Positions 21,565-52,234 of a stretch of DNA of 57,799 bases are shown here, piece by piece. The DNA is from a virus. Its lineage: Duplodnaviria; Caudoviricetes. The position numbers and the translations under genes are program-made. The stretch spans positions 1-57,799 of IMG/VR virus record IMGVR_UViG_3300047560_001719; one strand, given 5' to 3'. The first letter of the stretch is position 1. The number at the start of each line of letters is the position of its first letter. The notes under the pieces were generated by a model. That model made no database searches. It worked only from the letters and a program-made list of their open reading frames with translations, and was not told the DNA's origin.

Positions 21565-23295
21565 ATGGCAGGCGCAAACAGTAGATTTAAAGTTGATAAC
21601 GGTCTAGTTGCTTCTGGTAACGCCATCTTCTATGATCGTGTCGATGTCGAGGCTAACGCTCACTTCAAGAACGACTTGTTCGTTGTATCTGGTAACCTAG
21701 TCGTTAACGGATCGCTAGTATACGCTAACGTGACAGTAGGCAACGGCGGTATCCTTCTGATCGCGGATCAGCAACCGCTCGGTAACACATCGAATCGTTT
21801 CAACGGTTTCCTTTACGATACCATCTCATACGGAACTCTTCGTCCGAACTCCAACGGTGGTGCTCTCGGTACTACGACTGCACGTTTTGATGTTTTTGCA
21901 AACAACATCACTCTCACAAACTCTCTGCAGTTGACAGGCGGTGGTGGAGTCAACTCATCCCTCTATACGGGTACAGCGAGCAACGCAAATACTGTTTACA
22001 ATATCTCGGCAAACGGTATAGTAGTTCGTACAGGTACAGGAACTGGTGAAGCAAGAACTATCGTCGGTTCAAATGCCGTTACAGTTACCAACGGTGATGG
22101 TGTATCTGGTAATCCAACTTTGACGTTTGCCAATGGTACGGGTCTTACCGTCAACTCGACTGGTGTACACGTCGATCTTTCTGCTGTCACGACTGGTACT
22201 CTTGCAGTGGCTCGTGGTGGTACAGCAGGTAACGTAAACAACCTTCTACCTACTCAATCGGCCGGTGTAGCAGGATACGTTCTGTCTACTAACGGTGCTG
22301 GCGGTGGTCTATATTGGTCTGCTCTTGCTGGACCACAAGGACCACAAGGTGCGACAGGTGCAACTGGGGCCACAGGATCTACAGGTGCACAAGGACCACA
22401 GGGACCACAGGGACCGCAGGGAGCTGCATCGACAGTTGCAGGTCCACAAGGTGCTACAGGGGCAACTGGAGCGACTGGACTTACAGGACCGCAGGGACCT
22501 ACTGGACCACAAGGGCCACAAGGTGCTCAAGGTTTACAAGGTGCTACTGGATCTACTGGAGCTACAGGTGCACAAGGACCACAAGGACCACAAGGTGCTA
22601 CTGGTGCAGCTTCGACTGTTGCAGGTCCACAAGGACCACAGGGACCGACAGGAGCTACAGGATCAACTGGTCTTACCGGGGCCCAAGGACCACAAGGACC
22701 AACTGGGGCACAAGGTGCTACTGGGGCGCAAGGATTACAGGGCGCGCAGGGATTACAGGGTGCAGCTGGTGCTACAGGTGCGCAGGGACCGACGGGTGCA
22801 CAGGGACCTGCAGGATCGAATGGTTCGACAGGTGCTACGGGGGCACAGGGTCCACAGGGACCACAAGGAAGTGCAGCTTCAGCAGCTGCACCTATTCTCA
22901 GACACGTTACATCTGGTTACACATCAGGCGGTCAAGTCTTCGTAACGGGAACTACACCGACTGCATCGGCCGCTGGTGATATCTGGATCGATACTTCTGG
23001 TTCTTCAGGGTTTACGCAGTCTCTCTCTTCGAGCGGTTATACTAAACTACCGAACGGTGTGTACATTCAATGGGGTTCGATATATACATCTCCAAACTCG
23101 AATGGGTCAGGATCATGGCCTATCACTTTCCCGAATGCATGTTTTGCTGGTGTGATGAACGGTGTCGGTGAAACAAGTACATTCGGCGGTCAAGGTGGCG
23201 ACCCGACGATCTATAGTGTAAGTACTTCTGGATTTAGTTATCACTCTGGTGATGATGTTGGATGTACAGCATGGTTCATAGCAGTAGGATACTAA
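21565..23295 (+). CDS. Collagen-like tail fibre (576 aa)
   Basis: N-terminal FKVDNGL motif; [10 protein letters not shown]; long Gly-X-Y tract; C-terminal [13 protein letters not shown]...WPITFPNAC...W.AVGY domain typical of fibre tips; followed by a chaperone-like gene. Confidence 0.85.
22330..22875 (+). repeat. Collagen Gly-X-Y coding repeat ([12 protein letters not shown]), about 55 triplets with two AASTVA interruptions
   Basis: 9-bp periodicity (ggaccacaa/ggtgctact) in the DNA and in the translation. Confidence 0.92.
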
Positions 23296-26249: not shown

Positions 26250-26435
26250 ATGGAAGCTGAATTTGTTAATGAATATATCAATCGACTGATTGCAAACGTT
26301 CATGATCTTACAAGCAAGAACATTCTACTCGAAACAAGGCTGGCTATCGCTGAGAAGTTGGTAGCCAGCCTTCAGATCGAAAAGCAAGAAGCCAAAGTTT
26401 CTAAAACTAAAAAAGCTGAAGATCCGACGGTATAA
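26250..26435 (+). CDS. Small coiled-coil hypothetical protein
   Basis: 61 aa with a heptad pattern; GGAGG SD upstream. Confidence 0.65.
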   Translation: MEAEFVNEYINRLIANVHDLTSKNILLETRLAIAEKLVASLQIEKQEAKVSKTKKAEDPTV

Positions 26436-26487: not shown

Positions 26488-27996
26488 ATGGCAAATAAGT
26501 TTCAGTTAAAGCGCACGACCGTATCTGGTCGTACAGCGAACACCACCGATAGTGGTAATACATCCTTCATCGATAAAGGCGAACTCGCCGTCAACTTGGC
26601 CGACAGAAAAGTCTTCTCGTCGGACTCGTCGAATGTCATCTTCGAAGTCGGTTCCAACCTCTCATCTCTTTCAGTAGGATCTATCGTAGCCAACGGGTCG
26701 TTGGGTACTAGCGGCCAGGTACTTACTACCAATAGTAGCGGAGTATACTGGGCTACTGCGGGTGGTGGAGTAAACGCGGATCAAGTCACTTACACCTATA
26801 CGATCGCTGCTAACACCACTGTTATCACCGGTGCAGACGATGCCACTCGAACTCTGACTTATACCTCCGGACTCGAAAGCGTGTTCATCAATGGATCTCG
26901 TCAGATTTCAGGAGTTGATTATAACACTACCAACTCTGCTGCTATCACTCTTACTTCGAACGTAATAGCCGGAGAAGTCGTACAGGTCATTACATGGCAA
27001 GGTGCAGTCAACAGCGCTAACGTCGATGCTCAGTATACTTGGACTAACACTCATACTTTTAATAGTCTACTCACAGCGGCAAACAGCATATACCTCACCG
27101 GAGGAGGTGATGTTATTATTTCTTCGGCAGGAGTCGGAGGAGCTAACGCTAATACATCTTTCTATAACGATGCATCTGATCTTTATATTAACGTAAACAA
27201 TGCGATTCGTGCTTATATTGCAAGTAATGGCAACTTCGGTGTAGGCAATACTTCTCCTGCTCATAAGTTTAGAGTAGATGGGAATGTATCTTATTCTGGC
27301 ACTCTCTTTACGGCAGGCATTTCAGCGAACGGATCAGTAGGTTCTTCTGGACAGATTCTTACATCGAACGGGTCACAAGCCTACTGGCAAACACAACAGT
27401 TTCGCACTGCCGGCCAAACAGTTATTTCCGCTAACACGACTCTTGATTCGACTTATCTCGGCGAAAACATTCTTGTTGTTACAGCTGATATTACTATCAC
27501 ACTGCCATCCAGCGGTTTCGATTCAGGCACTTTGGCTTTTATCTCAAACGTCTCGGGTGGTAAAGTCAACCTATCATATGCATATGCTGGTGACGGTCCT
27601 ACTGTTCTTTATCCAAACGATAGCGTTATTCTCTGTACTGATGGTAACGGATCCTCTCTTTATTGGCGCCAGTATTCTTATACTAATACGTTACAGTTAG
27701 AACCAATAGTAGCGGTTTCTGCATTAGACGTAGACTGCTCTAAAGGAACATATTTTACTAAGACTATCGCTGCTAATAGCACGTTTACATTCTCAAACGT
27801 ACCGACGAGTGTTGCGTATAGTTTCACTCTTGAAGTAACTCATACAAGCGGTACTATTACCTGGCCTGCTGCAGTGAAATGGCCATCAGATACAGCTCCT
27901 ACTCTCACAACTGGCAAAACTCACCTGTTCATGTTTACTACTGCTAATGGTGGTACGCGTTGGAGAGGTTCAGCTCTCGTGGACTATGTAAACTAA
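26488..27996 (+). CDS. Tail fibre protein (502 aa)
   Basis: FQLKRT.V.GR.....GELAVN.AD.K.F N-terminus; ANGS.G.SGQ.LT.N....YW modules; GNFGVGNTSPAHK; C-terminal ITWP..VKWP..TAPTLT domain. Confidence 0.82.
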   Translation: MANKFQLKRTTVSGRTANTTDSGNTSFIDKGELAVNLADRKVFSSDSSNVIFEVGSNLSSLSVGSIVANGSLGTSGQVLTTNSSGVYWATAGGGVNADQVTYTYTIAANTTVITGADDATRTLTYTSGLESVFINGSRQISGVDYNTTNSAAITLTSNVIAGEVVQVITWQGAVNSANVDAQYTWTNTHTFNSLLTAANSIYLTGGGDVIISSAGVGGANANTSFYNDASDLYINVNNAIRAYIASNGNFGVGNTSPAHKFRVDGNVSYSGTLFTAGISANGSVGSSGQILTSNGSQAYWQTQQFRTAGQTVISANTTLDSTYLGENILVVTADITITLPSSGFDSGTLAFISNVSGGKVNLSYAYAGDGPTVLYPNDSVILCTDGNGSSLYWRQYSYTNTLQLEPIVAVSALDVDCSKGTYFTKTIAANSTFTFSNVPTSVAYSFTLEVTHTSGTITWPAAVKWPSDTAPTLTTGKTHLFMFTTANGGTRWRGSALVDYVN

Positions 27997-28817
27997 TGGG
28001 TAGACTCGGTAGAATGCTTATGCGAGGAGCTGCTGGTAGGCGTGGAGGTCCTGGTCAGATAGCATATACGGTTCCCGGTACATATACTTGGGTAGCTCCG
28101 GCCGGCGTGACAAGTGTATGTGTTGTCTGCGTAGGTGGTGGAAGTTCGCAAGGTGGAGGCGGGGCTCTTGCATACGGTAATGATATTGCGGTCACAGCTG
28201 GTGCATCATATACTGTTGTAGTTGGTGGCACAGACACCAATACTGGAGGACAATCGTACTTTAGTTCAACATCTCTACTTTATGCGAATGGCGGAAATAG
28301 CAATGGATCAGGTGGCACCGGGGGAGGTACAGCAAGAAATGGAGGAGGTAGCGGCGGGAATCGTGGCGCTTCTGCAAGTGCCCCAGGTGGAGGTGGAGGA
28401 GCAGGTGGTTACAGCGGTAACGGTGGAGATGGCGGGTCTGGTACCAATCCTCCGGGACTTGGAGATATCAATTGGGGTGGTGGTAGTACAGGCGGTTCTG
28501 GAGGTGCAGGAGGTGGTGGAGCCGGAGGTACTTCCCTCACTAGCGTTTCTGGAGAGTCATCATATCCAGGTGGTGCCGGTGGTGGAGTAGGGTTATTGGG
28601 TCAAGGTTCATCGGGTGCCGGTATTGCAAGCGCATATAATCAGGGTGATGGGAACCCTGGCTCGGGAGGAAGTGGTAAACTCTATGGAGGTGGAGCCGGC
28701 GGATGGGCTTATGATTATGCTGGGCGTGAGGCCTACAACGGAGGTGGTAAAGGCGCAGTTCGTATCATATGGGGTACAAACAGATCGTTTCCTTCTACAA
28801 ATACAGGTGATGTATAA
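27996..28817 (+). CDS. Glycine-rich adhesin-like protein (gp38-like polyglycine architecture, 273 aa)
   Basis: ATG 27996 is coupled to the upstream TAA (TAATG); YT.PGTYTW.APAGVTSV.VVCVGGG ... many GGGGGAGG runs ... GG.GAVRIIWG. Confidence 0.75.
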   Translation: MGRLGRMLMRGAAGRRGGPGQIAYTVPGTYTWVAPAGVTSVCVVCVGGGSSQGGGGALAYGNDIAVTAGASYTVVVGGTDTNTGGQSYFSSTSLLYANGGNSNGSGGTGGGTARNGGGSGGNRGASASAPGGGGGAGGYSGNGGDGGSGTNPPGLGDINWGGGSTGGSGGAGGGGAGGTSLTSVSGESSYPGGAGGGVGLLGQGSSGAGIASAYNQGDGNPGSGGSGKLYGGGAGGWAYDYAGREAYNGGGKGAVRIIWGTNRSFPSTNTGDV

Positions 28818-29083
28818 TGAGACTATTCATACGACTACAAGATGGTCAGCCTGTTGATCATCCCATTTATGAAGAGAATATGAGACAGGCTTATCCAGGT
28901 ATTGATTTGGATAATTTACCTGAAACTTTTGCAGAGTTTGAGCGCATAGATGTTCCTGCTCTTCAAAAGTATGAAATATACGAAGGCGTTACATATCAAT
29001 GGGTTGATGGTATTGTTAAAGATGTGCACAGTGTACGCCCTATGACAGATGAAGAAAAAGCTGAACTCGAAGAATTATTATAA
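28817..29083 (+). CDS. Hypothetical protein, possibly fibre chaperone-like (88 aa)
   Basis: TAATG coupling; ends VRPMTDEEKAE, resembling the N-terminal half of tail-assembly chaperones. Confidence 0.65.
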   Translation: MRLFIRLQDGQPVDHPIYEENMRQAYPGIDLDNLPETFAEFERIDVPALQKYEIYEGVTYQWVDGIVKDVHSVRPMTDEEKAELEELL

Positions 29084-32000
29084 ATAATAAAAACAATTTT
29101 AGAGTCAAGAACGGGCTCACAGTAAGTAACGGGATCGTAGTAGAAGCCGGAGTTATTTCTGGTAACGGCTCTTCGATCACATCGGTCAACGCAGCTACTC
29201 TTAACGGTAACACCGCTGCTCAGCTTCGAGCTTATACTGACTCATCTATCGGTACATCCAACACTGCTATCGTAGCGAATGCTTCTGCGGCTTACACGAA
29301 CGCTGTAAGCTATACAGATACTAAAATTGGAACTGCCAACTCTGCCATCACTGGTAACGCTGCTACTGCTTATACGAACGCCACTTCGTTTGCATCGAAC
29401 GGTTCGAACATCTCGACAGGAACTGTAGCTTTCGCTCGCCTTCCTACTGTCGACTCGGTAGCTAATACATCAGTTGCATTAATCCCGACAGCCAACAACG
29501 TCAAGACTGCATACGATGCTGCTATCACAGCCAACAACAATGCTGCGTCTGCACTCACTGCGGCCGGTACAGCATACAGTAACGCTGTAACCTACACCGA
29601 CACCAAGATCGGTACGGCCAACTCTGCTATCGTAGCTAATGCATCGGCTGCTTATACTAACGCAGTTTCTTATACAGATGGCAAGATCCTAACTGCAAAC
29701 TCTGCTATTACAGGCAATGCTGCCACCGCCTACTCTAACGCGACTAGCTACACTGACACGAAGATCGGTACTGCAAACTCTGCGATGATCGCGAACGCCA
29801 GTGCAGCTTATACCAATGCTACAACCTATGCATCGAACGCTTCGAACATCTCGACAGGAACTCTTGCTTTCGCGAGACTTCCTACTGTAGACTCTGTAGC
29901 GAATACATCAGTAGCTTTGGTTCCTACTGCCAACAACGTCAAGACGGCATACGATGCAGCTATCACCGCAAATACCAATGCGCAGACAGCTTTGACTGCA
30001 GCGGGTGCAGCTTATACCAATGCAGTGAGCTACACAGATACGAAGATCGGTACTGCAAATACGGCCATGGCTGCTAACGCTGCAGCTGCTTATACAAATG
30101 CTGTCAGTTACACAGACGGTAAGATTCTAACTGCGAACTCTGCTATTACAGGCAACGCAGCTACGGCATATACCAATGCGACGACATACGCTTCGAATGC
30201 CAGCAATCTTTCTACCGGAACAGTAGCAGAAGCTCGGCTTCCATATCGTATGAACCAAAACGTTCGTACTACAGATTCTGTAGAATTTGCTGGTATCACT
30301 CTCACAGGAAACCTTGTTGTTTCAGGTAACGTGAACGTTGTCGGCGCAAATAACCTGATCGTGTCCGATAACATGATCTATCTGAACAGCAACAACGACG
30401 TCACGAACCCGGATATCGGTATCGCTGGTAACTACAACGACGGCGTGTATCACCACACGGGTATCTTCAGAGATGCCACTGACGGGTTCTGGAAAGTTTT
30501 TGATAACTATGATCCAGAACCAGACGCGAACGTGTACATCGATACTACTAACACGTCGTTCCATATCGCTGATTTCTGGGCAAATACAGCACGTATCGGT
30601 AACACATCAGTATACGCCACCATTAATACCACGACGTTTACTGGCACCGCGAACAACTCTACGTATCTTAATGGTCAACTAGCAGCTTACTATACGAATG
30701 CCACGAATATTAGTACAGGTACACTCGCAGCAGCTCGTTTACCTTCACTGTATCTCGGCACTACGACTATTCAGTCTACCAGCGCCGCGCAGGCTGTTAG
30801 CGGTATCACGACTCTTGCTGCAGGTAATACTACGATTACCGGTTTTGCAAACGTATCGGTGTCTGTTAACTCTGCTGCTCTTTCTGTCGGATCAAGCTTT
30901 GTAGCCAACACTACACAAGTAACTTATGGTATTCCACAGCTGATCAATAATAATCAGCATCTAAGATTCCAGACAGTCAACACTTCTGCATACGCATACT
31001 TTACACAGCAGAACGACGATAACTTTGTATTCTATACATCGAACACCACTTATGGCGCTCGTGCAGTATTCTCGATCTTTGCCAACAGCGTCACGAGTAC
31101 TTTTAACATCTCTCCAGGTGTTGTATTCAACGGCGGTATCTATGCTAACGGTTCGTACGGTACTTCTGGTCAAGTCCTAACAACGAATGGAACCGGAGTC
31201 TACTGGTCAACTGCATCAGCAGGTGTGAACGTCAACTCTACGTATGCTTGGACTAACACACACTCGTTTGCCGCCAACGTTACTTTTGCAAACAACATCT
31301 CTATCACTTCAGGAAACTCTTCTGTTGCTGGTGGGTTCTTGCTATTCAACGGTATAGCAGACGCTAACTGGAAGATCGGCAGAAATACCAACGGTACAAC
31401 CAAGTGGTACTACACAAACAACTCTCTTGATATCTTAGTAGCCAACTCGAACCTCGAAGGTATCGTTCTCGGTAACCCGCTCGTTAGCGGACAATCTTAC
31501 CTCGAAACTGGCCATGCCGGAACTTACATCGCAGGTAACGTAACTATCGGTAACACTTCGTCTAAATCTACCATCAACTCGACTGCGTTCTCAGGCTCTG
31601 CTAACAACTCTACATACTTTGACACAGCAACATGGGCAGCACCGAAAGCTATCGGTGGAGGCACTGCCAACTCGGGTGCTTTCACTACGGTAACTGCTAC
31701 GAGCGTTTCTGCTACTACAAACATCACCGCTACAGCAAACGTTTCGGGTGATATGGTTATCACAGCCAATAACGGTAACGGTACAAACTTCAAGGTCGGA
31801 GACGATGCTTGGATCGGAGACGTCAACCAGGCAGATACTCTTCGTATTCAAGGTCAACAGAGCGCAAACAACGCATACATCGTATTCGGCAATGCCGATA
31901 ACTCGATTAAGCTTGGCCGTGCAGGAACAGGAGCACTAACTTGGAACAGTAACTTTGCTGTTACAGGTAACGTTAACGTCAGCACTATTAATGCCACATC

Positions 32001-33918
32001 GTTCGGAGCTACGATCACGTCGAACGCTTCTGTAGCAGTCATGACGATCGGTAACTCTTCAGTGAGCTCAACCGTAAACAGCACGACGTTTACCGGCACC
32101 GCCAACAACGCTACGTATCTTAATGGTCAACTTGCTGCATACTATACCAATGCCACGAACATCACTACCGGTACTTTACCTTACGCTCAGATCCCAGCAA
32201 ACGTAATCAATACGACAGCGAACTTTACTATCTCTGGCCAGCATACCTATAATGTTGCAACGTGGGGAGTAATATTTAGAGCATCGAATACTACAAACTT
32301 CTCTGGAGCTAGATGGGAAGACACCGGTGGTACGGTTAGAGCAGGTTGGTATCGTTACGATAATTCTGATCTAACGCTGTCGACATACTATGCGAACGGT
32401 ACATATCAAGCTTCTCCTATTATTGTTTCATCAGCAACGGGAGCAGTTTCTCTTACATCGCTGTCAACGACAACCGGTACTTTCTCCGGCGCGGTTTCAG
32501 GTATTACTACTCTTGCAGCCGGTAACACTACTATTACTGGCTTTGCGAACGTATCTACTTCAGTCAACTCTGCACTGTTGACGGTTGGATCTAGCTTCAT
32601 TGCAAATACCACAGGTGCATATCATACAGGAACAGTCAACGCTGCATCTTATACAGTCGGAACAACGTTCGTTGCGAACAGTACATTCCTAACAGTAGGT
32701 ACAGCAACTCCATACAACAGCGGACTCGTTACATCATCTGCTCCCGATGGAAAACAAGCATATACTGCGCAAGTAGCCAACAATGTTTATTCACTATTCC
32801 AAGGATTCAACTCAAGCGGCGGTCTTGCTTTCCAAGTAACTGGTTCTGGATCTGTTACCGCAAACGGGTCATTGTCAGGAGTTACCACTCTTGCAGCTGG
32901 TAATACAACTATCACCGGATTCGCTAACGTTAGTGGTACCGGTGGAACGCAGCCTGCAATCGCTCTTAGAAGTGGTGTTTATGGAGCATTTGTTGTACCA
33001 CAAGCCAGTCCAGGCGCGTATAATAACTTAGTAGCTAATAATGACAATTTATTGTACTTCTCGAATGGCACTATAAACGGTGGAAATCTTGTCATTGGAT
33101 CATGGTCAGATCGTGCATCAGGCTATGGCATTAAATTTACCGGCAGTACATACGATTTAGCAGTTACTGCTAATACCCTCACTATTACTGGTAACACGAC
33201 TATTACCGGTTTCGCCAACGTAACTACTACTCTCCAGGTCGGAGGAGGCACTGCAGGTTCTCCAGCAATCACCGCTGCTACATCTACTGGCGGTGTTTCC
33301 CTGTCTCTTACAGATAGTGTTACGAGTACTCTTATCGTAAGGCATGATTCTGGATCAGGTCATCCTATTATTGGTACAAATGGTTCTGGTTTGAGACTTG
33401 CGGCTGGAGGTTCACAGTCAGGTCAAACTGCTATCACTATCATCAACAGTGGTAATACCGGTATCGGTAACACCTCTCCAGCACATAAGTTTTCAGTTAA
33501 CGGAACAACATACCTTGGAGGTATCACGACAGCTGCAGCTAACGTGGCGATGGCTAACAACTATATCGTTGCTCCTGCATTCCAAGCATACTCTGAATAC
33601 GTGTCGACGAATGCCACTGCAACTGGTGCTATCACTCTCGACCTGTCGACTTCGAACTTCTTCAACCTGACTCTGACAGGTAACATCACTCCGACGTTTA
33701 GCAACGCTCCTTCTGGTAGAATGTTCTCGTTCACGTTCGTTGCCAAGCAAGACGCGACAGGTGGTAGAACGATCACATGGCCGACAGGAACGAAATGGCC
33801 AGGCGGTGTTGCACCTCCTGCAACGACTACGGCAAACGCCATAGATATATGGTCAGTCATGACATACGACGGCGGTACTACATGGATCGCTTCACTCTCA
33901 GTTAAAAATGCGAGCTAA
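29065..33918 (+). CDS. Long tail fibre protein; reading frame open from 29065, true start codon unresolved
   Basis: Translated by hand, frame 1 is stop-free from 29065 (TRRIIINNKNNFRVKNGLTVSNG...) into the annotated ATG 29785 and carries the same repeats on both sides of that ATG. Contains YTD coiled-coil repeats, SGITTLAAGNTTITGFANVS repeats and a C-terminal ITWP...KWPGG.AP domain. Confidence 0.8.
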   Translation, partial: TRRIIINNKNNFRVKNGLTVSNGIVVEAGVISGNGSSITSVNAATLNGNTAAQLRAYTDSSIGTSNTAIVANASAAYTNAVSYTDTKIGTANSAITGNAATAYTNATSFASNGSNISTGTVAFARLPTVDSVANTSVALIPTANNVKTAYDAAITANNNAASALTAAGTAYSNAVTYTDTKIGTANSAIVANASAAYTNAVSYTDGKILTANSAITGNAATAYSNATSYTDTKIGTANSAMIANASAAYTNATTYASNASNISTGTLAFARLPTVDSVANTSVALVPTANNVKTAYDAAITANTNAQTALTAAGAAYTNAVSYTDTKIGTANTAMAANAAAAYTNAVSYTDGKILTANSAITGNAATAYTNATTYASNASNLSTGTVAEARLPYRMNQNVRTTDSVEFAGITLTGNLVVSGNVNVVGANNLIVSDNMIYLNSNNDVTNPDIGIAGNYNDGVYHHTGIFRDATDGFWKVFDNYDPEPDANVYIDTTNTSFHIADFWANTARIGNTSVYATINTTTFTGTANNSTYLNGQLAAYYTNATNISTGTLAAARLPSLYLGTTTIQSTSAAQAVSGITTLAAGNTTITGFANVSVSVNSAALSVGSSFVANTTQVTYGIPQLINNNQHLRFQTVNTSAYAYFTQQNDDNFVFYTSNTTYGARAVFSIFANSVTSTFNISPGVVFNGGIYANGSYGTSGQVLTTNGTGVYWSTASAGVNVNSTYAWTNTHSFAANVTFANNISITSGNSSVAGGFLLFNGIADANWKIGRNTNGTTKWYYTNNSLDILVANSNLEGIVLGNPLVSGQSYLETGHAGTYIAGNVTIGNTSSKSTINSTAFSGSANNSTYFDTATWAAPKAIGGGTANSGAFTTVTATSVSATTNITATANVSGDMVITANNGNGTNFKVGDDAWIGDVNQADTLRIQGQQSANNAYIVFGNADNSIKLGRAGTGALTWNSNFAVTGNVNVSTINATSFGATITSNASVAVMTIGNSSVSSTVNSTTFTGTANNATYLNGQLAAYYTNATNITTGTLPYAQIPANVINTTANFTISGQHTYNVATWGVIFRASNTTNFSGARWEDTGGTVRAGWYRYDNSDLTLSTYYANGTYQASPIIVSSATGAVSLTSLSTTTGTFSGAVSGITTLAAGNTTITGFANVSTSVNSALLTVGSSFIANTTGAYHTGTVNAASYTVGTTFVANSTFLTVGTATPYNSGLVTSSAPDGKQAYTAQVANNVYSLFQGFNSSGGLAFQVTGSGSVTANGSLSGVTTLAAGNTTITGFANVSGTGGTQPAIALRSGVYGAFVVPQASPGAYNNLVANNDNLLYFSNGTINGGNLVIGSWSDRASGYGIKFTGSTYDLAVTANTLTITGNTTITGFANVTTTLQVGGGTAGSPAITAATSTGGVSLSLTDSVTSTLIVRHDSGSGHPIIGTNGSGLRLAAGGSQSGQTAITIINSGNTGIGNTSPAHKFSVNGTTYLGGITTAAANVAMANNYIVAPAFQAYSEYVSTNATATGAITLDLSTSNFFNLTLTGNITPTFSNAPSGRMFSFTFVAKQDATGGRTITWPTGTKWPGGVAPPATTTANAIDIWSVMTYDGGTTWIASLSVKNAS
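29079..29086 (+). promoter_or_regulatory. T4-type late promoter TATAAATA
   Basis: Exact consensus overlapping the TAA at 29081-29083. Confidence 0.75.
29230..30240 (+). repeat. 26-aa Ala/Thr/Asn coiled-coil repeats (AYTNAVSYTDTKIGTANSAITGNAAT) within a larger 438-bp-spaced duplication
   Basis: Six full 26-aa units plus a partial one; the block starting AYTNAT(S/T)(F/Y)ASN..NISTGT.AFARLPTVDSVANTSVAL occurs at 29368 and 29806. Confidence 0.85.
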
Positions 33919-51895: not shown

Positions 51896-51903
51896 TATAA
51901 ATA
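51896..51903 (+). promoter_or_regulatory. T4-type late promoter TATAAATA
   Basis: Exact consensus, intergenic, before a GGAG SD. Confidence 0.85.
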
Positions 51904-51928
51904 ATAAAAAGACTTTTGGAGAATCTAT

Positions 51929-52234
51929 ATGGATATTGACGAACTGATCGGCGCAGCTGTAGATCAACAACCAACGCGGTTCGCTTCGGTTTTCGACGAA
52001 CTGATGGGTCAGAAGATCGCTGCACGTCTTGAAGACGAGAGAATCTCGTATGCACAGCAGATGTTCGCAGAGCCAGCTGAAGACGATGAAAACGAAGACG
52101 AAGACTACGACGACTATGAAGATAACGTAGACTTTGATATCGATGACGACGAGTTCGAAGATATTGATCTAGATGATCTGGATCTAGAAGACATCAACAC
52201 AGAGGAAGAAGACGACGATGGCGAAGACGCTTAA
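51929..52234 (+). CDS. Prohead core protein, gp67-like
   Basis: Directly after gp20; helical N-half (F...M..KI...LE......A..MF) and an extremely acidic tail, as in T4 gp67. Confidence 0.7.
   Translation: MDIDELIGAAVDQQPTRFASVFDELMGQKIAARLEDERISYAQQMFAEPAEDDENEDEDYDDYEDNVDFDIDDDEFEDIDLDDLDLEDINTEEEDDDGEDA

Follow-up and report, generated by a model that had tools for sequence, protein, structure and literature searches.

An 88-aa ORF, a T4-type late-promoter box and a long tail-fibre gene follow one another on the plus strand of the window, by which we mean the whole stretch of 57,799 nt that was analysed (Table 1). The record is a 57.8-kb IMG/VR virus fragment with an estimated completeness of 34%. 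A T4-type gene set (Gp23 major capsid, Gp18-type sheath, Gp8, baseplate wedge and T4-type large terminase), together with seven TATAAATA late-promoter boxes on the plus strand, identifies the window as a fragment of a T4-like myovirus. All 24 runs that contain parts of the window are labelled as water metagenomes, 18 of the 24 as freshwater, and X1 and X2 are the only runs that contain more than half of the window.

Table 1. Features at the fibre locus, with positions counted from the first letter of the window
Feature	Coordinates	Strand	Remarks
88-aa ORF	28817..29083	+	stop TAA 29081-83 falls within TATAAATA; in frame +1 with respect to the fibre
T4-type late-promoter box TATAAATA of the fibre gene	29079..29086	+	
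Junction, very probably with about 30-40 nt missing	29087..29096	+	alignment with relatives; X1, X2 and X7 contigs
Near-cognate codons ATT, ATT, ATA	29074..29082	+	ATA 29080 overlaps the upstream stop as A-TAA
Retained fibre coding region, from N of NNFRVKNGL to the stop	29092..33918	+	open frame
First canonical start, internal Met of the repeat region	29785..29787	+	gene caller's start (1377 aa)

The identity of the long gene as a tail fibre is supported by a match of residues 1515-1611 to PHROG 9017 'tail fiber protein' (E 1.9e-15), by its repeat architecture and by an N-terminal motif common to the fibre at 21565 and to 24 loci described below; no Pfam family was matched. The fibre at 21565 (21565-23295, 576 aa) has an N-terminal FKVDNGL motif related to the NNFRVKNGL motif and, at residues about 255-445, a collagen-like G-x-Q/G-P-Q/G-A-T block. 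A sequence-only reading of the window had described the gene under study as its longest tail-fibre gene. This holds among the fibre-like ORFs, but two other ORFs are longer (1753 and 1804 aa; baseplate wedge and DUF4815 models).

The fibre frame is closed upstream by an in-frame TGA (29062-64) and is open from 29065. When the sequence was rechecked, the 240 codons from 29065 to 29784 were indeed without any ATG, GTG or TTG, the earliest ATG being that at 29785. The remaining gene holds 26 such codons in 1377; at this rate, 240 codons should contain about 4.5, and the probability of finding none is about 0.01. Within the first 20 codons, the near-cognate codons in frame are solely ATT 29074, ATT 29077 and ATA 29080, all three at the overlap with the end of the 88-aa ORF and the TATAAATA box. 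They lack a clear SD, with duplex energies of -0.6, -1.0 and -1.0 kcal/mol, respectively, as compared with a median of -5.4 kcal/mol for the 39 called genes; an SD as weak is found in 1-4 of the 39. The earlier reading was correct on the lack of canonical starts and on the near-cognate codons, and also in that the frame encodes ..NNKNNFRVKNGLTVSNG.., which resembles the motif of the fibre at 21565. The open stretch reads ..NNKNNFRVKNGLTVSNGIVVEAG.. and continues into AAYTNAVSYTDTKIGTANSAI-type repeats, the same as those after 29785. Judged by its sequence, the stretch of the first 240 codons is clearly fibre-coding. The N-terminal third of the fibre (29230-30200) is made up of large internal repeats, with 75% DNA identity between 29608-29745 and 29248-29385, and contigs jump back 333-360 nt in the repeat region.

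The 88-aa ORF matched no Pfam or PHROG family. Its homologues were found at 13 viral loci (at most 56% identity) and 8 metagenome loci (at most 58%), the lowest identity being 37%, and they are free-standing in all inspected loci. A near-identical 89-aa protein from another assembly (P0024, on a 2.6-kb contig) is also separate, with its own stop. Among the relatives of the 88-aa ORF, none was sufficiently similar to reveal the ancestral junction, and the genes that follow downstream vary. No relative was found with the 88-aa gene and the fibre together on one visible DNA stretch, and therefore the exact ancestral junction of this lineage is one that we infer. Members of the 88-aa family (L001-L013 and L077-L084) either end soon after a conserved WVDGIVKDV.. 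core or have a longer C-terminal extension (L001-L004 and L012), and in L005-L009 the family member lies directly upstream of another gene, with a TAAATG stop-start overlap. The preceding ORF of the window (27960-28817) is listed with a TTG start and a 37-nt overlap with a fibre-like gene before it. Since its match to PHROG 4474 starts at residue 19, an internal ATG is probably its true start.

The start region in related fibre genes

When viral contigs were scanned with the 146 N-terminal residues of the fibre frame, 61 loci were obtained. The motif N-N-F-R-V/I-K-N/S-G-L is contained in the fetched DNA of 24 of them; the other 37 have a match to the repeat region only, another N-terminus (e.g. 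MANTTFQLRRS) or a gene start outside the fetched DNA. All 24 motif-bearing loci have an ATG 3-4 codons before the motif, which results in MTP, MATP or MTTP, and all 24 have a TATAAATA box 28-36 nt upstream of this ATG. A strikingly conserved leader, ..AAAATCTGNGGGATAGGGAACCAG, with a purine-rich ribosome-binding site, directly precedes the ATG. The sequence-only reading had proposed that relatives be aligned for an SD-ATG segment missing from the window. The alignment places leader, SD and ATG between TATAAATA and AAC AAT TTT AGA. The same reading had held that an ATG here in close relatives would speak against a gene without a canonical start, and close relatives do have an ATG at this position.

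The box and the first Asn codon of the motif are separated by 37-48 nt in the relatives and by 5 nt in the window (29087-29091). Because only 5 nt are left between TATAAATA and the first conserved codon, the record very probably lacks about 30-40 nt between the box and codon 4 of the fibre gene. By comparison with the related sequences, the lacking part would comprise most of the leader, the ribosome-binding site, the ATG and two codons. The five other TATAAATA boxes of the window that have a called downstream start are 25-71 nt away from the ATG. The fibre gene has the box, but no ATG, GTG or TTG occurs for 698 nt after it. The leader motif GGGATAGGGAACC was not found anywhere in the window with up to two mismatches allowed.

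The N-terminal 62 residues, when searched among longer proteins, recovered P0017 (620 aa), P0018 (836 aa, on a 91-kb contig) and P0019 (938 aa), which come from other assemblies. All three start with MTPNNFRVKNGLTVSNGIVVEAG.., i.e. MTP-NNFRVKNGL, and from NNF onwards they are identical to the window frame over 97, 97 and 64 residues, respectively. A protein search restricted to 128-410 aa returned matches in the repeat region only, or none. Neither the region nor the 88-aa ORF had a DNA or protein BLAST match in the GenBank phage collection, and the N-terminal 100 aa recovered no relative from genome contigs. Exact scans of viral contigs were also negative, both for the initial 23 nt of the conserved coding sequence and for a pattern of both flanks separated by a gap of 15-45 nt, a gap that may be too short for the intact form.

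Independent contigs at the junction

The junction was compared with Logan contigs, which are assembled sequence and not raw reads. Five contigs reach the junction of the window and none of the five bridges it. Three of them carry other sequence at this point, which in X7 contains a canonical start. In X1, where 0.93 of the sampled words occur, an 8487-nt contig with a depth of 15.3 stops at 29086 (record 1) and a 3067-nt contig with a depth of 17.7 begins at 29102 (record 5). The uncovered positions 29087-29101 are a hole in contig cover and not a proof of absence. X2 is derived from the same sample as X1, with a depth of 2-3. Its 151-nt contig (record 10) matches 28979-29096 and then has 33 unmatched letters, and its 364-nt contig (record 11) matches 29095-29428 without difference and has 30 unmatched letters on the left. 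From these coordinates and from X7, we infer that the overhangs of X2 correspond to the leader.

X7 comes from another study. Its 749-nt contig matches 29095-29304 with 5 differences in 210 nt (97.6%) and reads ..TGAGGGATAGGGAACCGGATGACACCGAAT directly upstream of 29095. The leader ..GGGATAGGGAACCGG is followed by ATG ACA CCG AAT, which leads straight into the AAT TTT AGA of the window. The contigs of X3 gave diverged repeat matches that are uninformative on the junction; X3 and X7 hold small parts of the window only. The contig ends in X1 (29086 and 29102) differ from the points of divergence in X2 (29096 and 29095), and more than two alleles may therefore be present.

Origin of the junction and alternative readings

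We attribute the missing start of the fibre gene, with a probability of roughly 0.85, to sequence lost from the record through a small deletion or an assembly fault, and not to a new mode of initiation. The intact gene would consist of TATAAATA, a leader of about 30 nt with a purine-rich ribosome-binding site, ATG ACA CCN (Met-Thr-Pro) and NNFRVKNGL. The loss would join the promoter and the first few leader bases directly to codon 4. That the frame remains open over a further nine codons upstream, reaching into the 3' end of the 88-aa ORF, would be due to chance. No decay is seen in the 4.8-kb frame, the N-terminal part of which matches intact relatives exactly, and this suggests that the loss is either very recent or not biological. 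Four causes had been offered by the sequence-only reading. Of these, the deletion of SD and start and the assembly error stand, and non-AUG initiation or re-initiation and a -1 fusion with the 88-aa ORF do not, as evolved mechanisms.

Between an assembly artefact and a recent deletion allele we see roughly even odds, leaning slightly to an artefact or a minor allele. In favour of an assembly fault, the leader and the N-terminal module are common to fibres with different bodies, so that assembly graphs branch here. In favour of a real allele, junctions are rarely invented by assemblers, and reads bearing the deletion probably exist somewhere. The flanks of the junction share a 2-nt overlap only (AA), which is compatible with a microhomology deletion. 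The case resembles known metagenome-assembly errors and minor-allele paths in two respects, both drawn from contigs: independent contigs stop or depart from the window no more than 10 nt away from the junction, and the leader and N-terminal module are shared by fibres with differing bodies. The startless fibre gene is present in the record, and it most likely does not represent a biological feature.

In comparison with the T4-type late signal, the window has the TATAAATA box in a T4-like gene set, and the related fibre genes have the full signal; the window fibre differs in that leader, SD and ATG are lacking. In T4, late transcription begins some 6 nt downstream of the box. Given a real deletion, a transcript from the fibre's own promoter would begin near 29092, without a start codon, and read-through transcripts would offer just ATT, ATT and ATA without an SD. 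The fibre would then be silenced or strongly under-expressed.

A real deletion could still permit a low level of fibre synthesis by re-initiation at AUA 29080 (or AUU 29077 or 29074) after the UAA of the 88-aa ORF. Such re-initiation would use read-through late transcripts from an upstream promoter, for example that with the box at 26431. The A-TAA geometry is the same as in the ATGA overlaps of the window (e.g. 36945, 37682, 38695 and 39928), and a start at ATA places the F of the motif at residue 7, where the fibre at 21565 has it at residue 8. For initiation at AUA and AUU in E. coli, bioRxiv 10.1101/063800 gives values of 1-2% of AUG in one reporter and 0.02-3% in another. We nevertheless consider re-initiation unlikely, given that SD pairing at these codons is nearly absent (-0.6 to -1.0 kcal/mol) and that the relatives have an ATG with its own promoter and leader. 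Under T4 geometry, the fibre's own promoter would start transcription downstream of the near-cognate codons, and the junction of the window occurs in no independent contig. Little credence is likewise given to the idea that a deletion allele persists through a small fibre output. The fibre would then be a natural example of a structural phage gene that depends entirely on termination-reinitiation, at a near-cognate codon and without an SD. The geometry itself recalls stop-start coupling (ATGA, TAATG), as ATA 29080 overlaps TAA 29081-83 in the way that ATG overlaps TGA in ATGA. The codon here is ATA, however, and the arrangement would arise from sequence loss and is not seen in relatives.

The infC and pcnB genes of E. 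coli have AUU starts, and in the account of bioRxiv 10.1101/063800 they have retained an SD, with conservation of the unusual codon. The window fibre is similar in that its possible starts are limited to AUU, AUU and AUA. It differs in having no SD, and the ATG of its relatives is at a different position that is now missing. As to a conserved non-canonical start, neither a position shared with relatives nor an SD at functional spacing was found.

The lambda G/GT pair represents the programmed -1 frameshift type in phage tail genes, and the window likewise has two overlapping tail-region ORFs in a -1 relation, with a 19-nt overlap (29065-29083). If ribosomes underwent a programmed -1 frameshift shortly before the stop of the 88-aa ORF, this ORF would be fused to the fibre in a product of about 1700 aa. 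Unlike in lambda, the final 60 nt of the 88-aa ORF contain no slippery heptamer (X XXY YYZ), and in relatives the downstream gene is equipped with a promoter and a start of its own. The near-identical fibres begin with Met-Thr-Pro, P0024 is separate with its own stop, and the homologues of the 88-aa ORF are free-standing. These observations make a fusion extremely improbable.

It has also to be considered that the true product begins at ATG 29785 (1377 aa) and that the upstream 720 nt are a non-coding remnant. This ATG is the first canonical start and the choice of the gene caller. The 240 codons upstream of it, however, are open, and the first 97 of them counted from NNF are identical to intact relatives. 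Met 29785 lies within a repeat unit, sister units of which have Ile at this place, and its SD energy is a mediocre -3.0 (weaker or equal in 9 of the 39 genes). The product would be without the conserved N-terminal motif of related fibres, and it is recorded for the window's own contig only. We therefore judge a start at 29785 to be very improbable. A gene-60-type bypass, an intron and a split gene were dropped, as no upstream piece encodes the missing Met-Thr-Pro.

If sequence has been lost from the record, as we believe, the 1377-aa product called from 29785 is a wrong annotation, and the natural fibre protein would be about 1611 aa with the N-terminus Met-Thr-Pro-Asn-Asn-Phe. Positions 29087-29096 deserve a flag in the record. 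If the deletion is real, one of the several fibres of a freshwater T4-like phage would have a naturally occurring knock-out or knock-down allele. Such an allele would be of modest value for the population genetics of host range and would still not be a new initiation mechanism.

The conserved leader and the fibre modules

The leader (about 24 nt; ..AAAATCTGNGGGATAGGGAACCAG-ATG) hardly varies over the 24 loci, whereas the proteins are only 40-72% identical to the query in their matched parts. The loci with the almost invariant leader are L017, L033-L048, L051, L063, L064, L066 and L069-L071, and in each of them it is located about 30 nt before the fibre ATG. Two copies of the leader are present on one contig (the L016/L069 record). 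A search of Rfam returned no family in four loci bearing the conserved leader. A role of the leader as a translation signal, or as a recombination handle by which fibre modules are swapped, is conceivable.

The last 50 or so residues of P0017 and P0018 are almost exactly those of the window fibre, and the middle parts differ (33-44% identity). Such a pattern in the protein sequences suggests that the fibres are modular and that their central parts are exchangeable or duplicated.

The promoter of the gene at 51929 (51896-51928) shares TATAAATAATAAAAA with the fibre promoter (29079-29104). After TATAAATAATAAAAA, the promoter of the 51929 gene continues with TTTTGGAG and that of the fibre with TTTTAGAG. 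The likeness of the two promoters is probably due to chance in AT-rich leaders.
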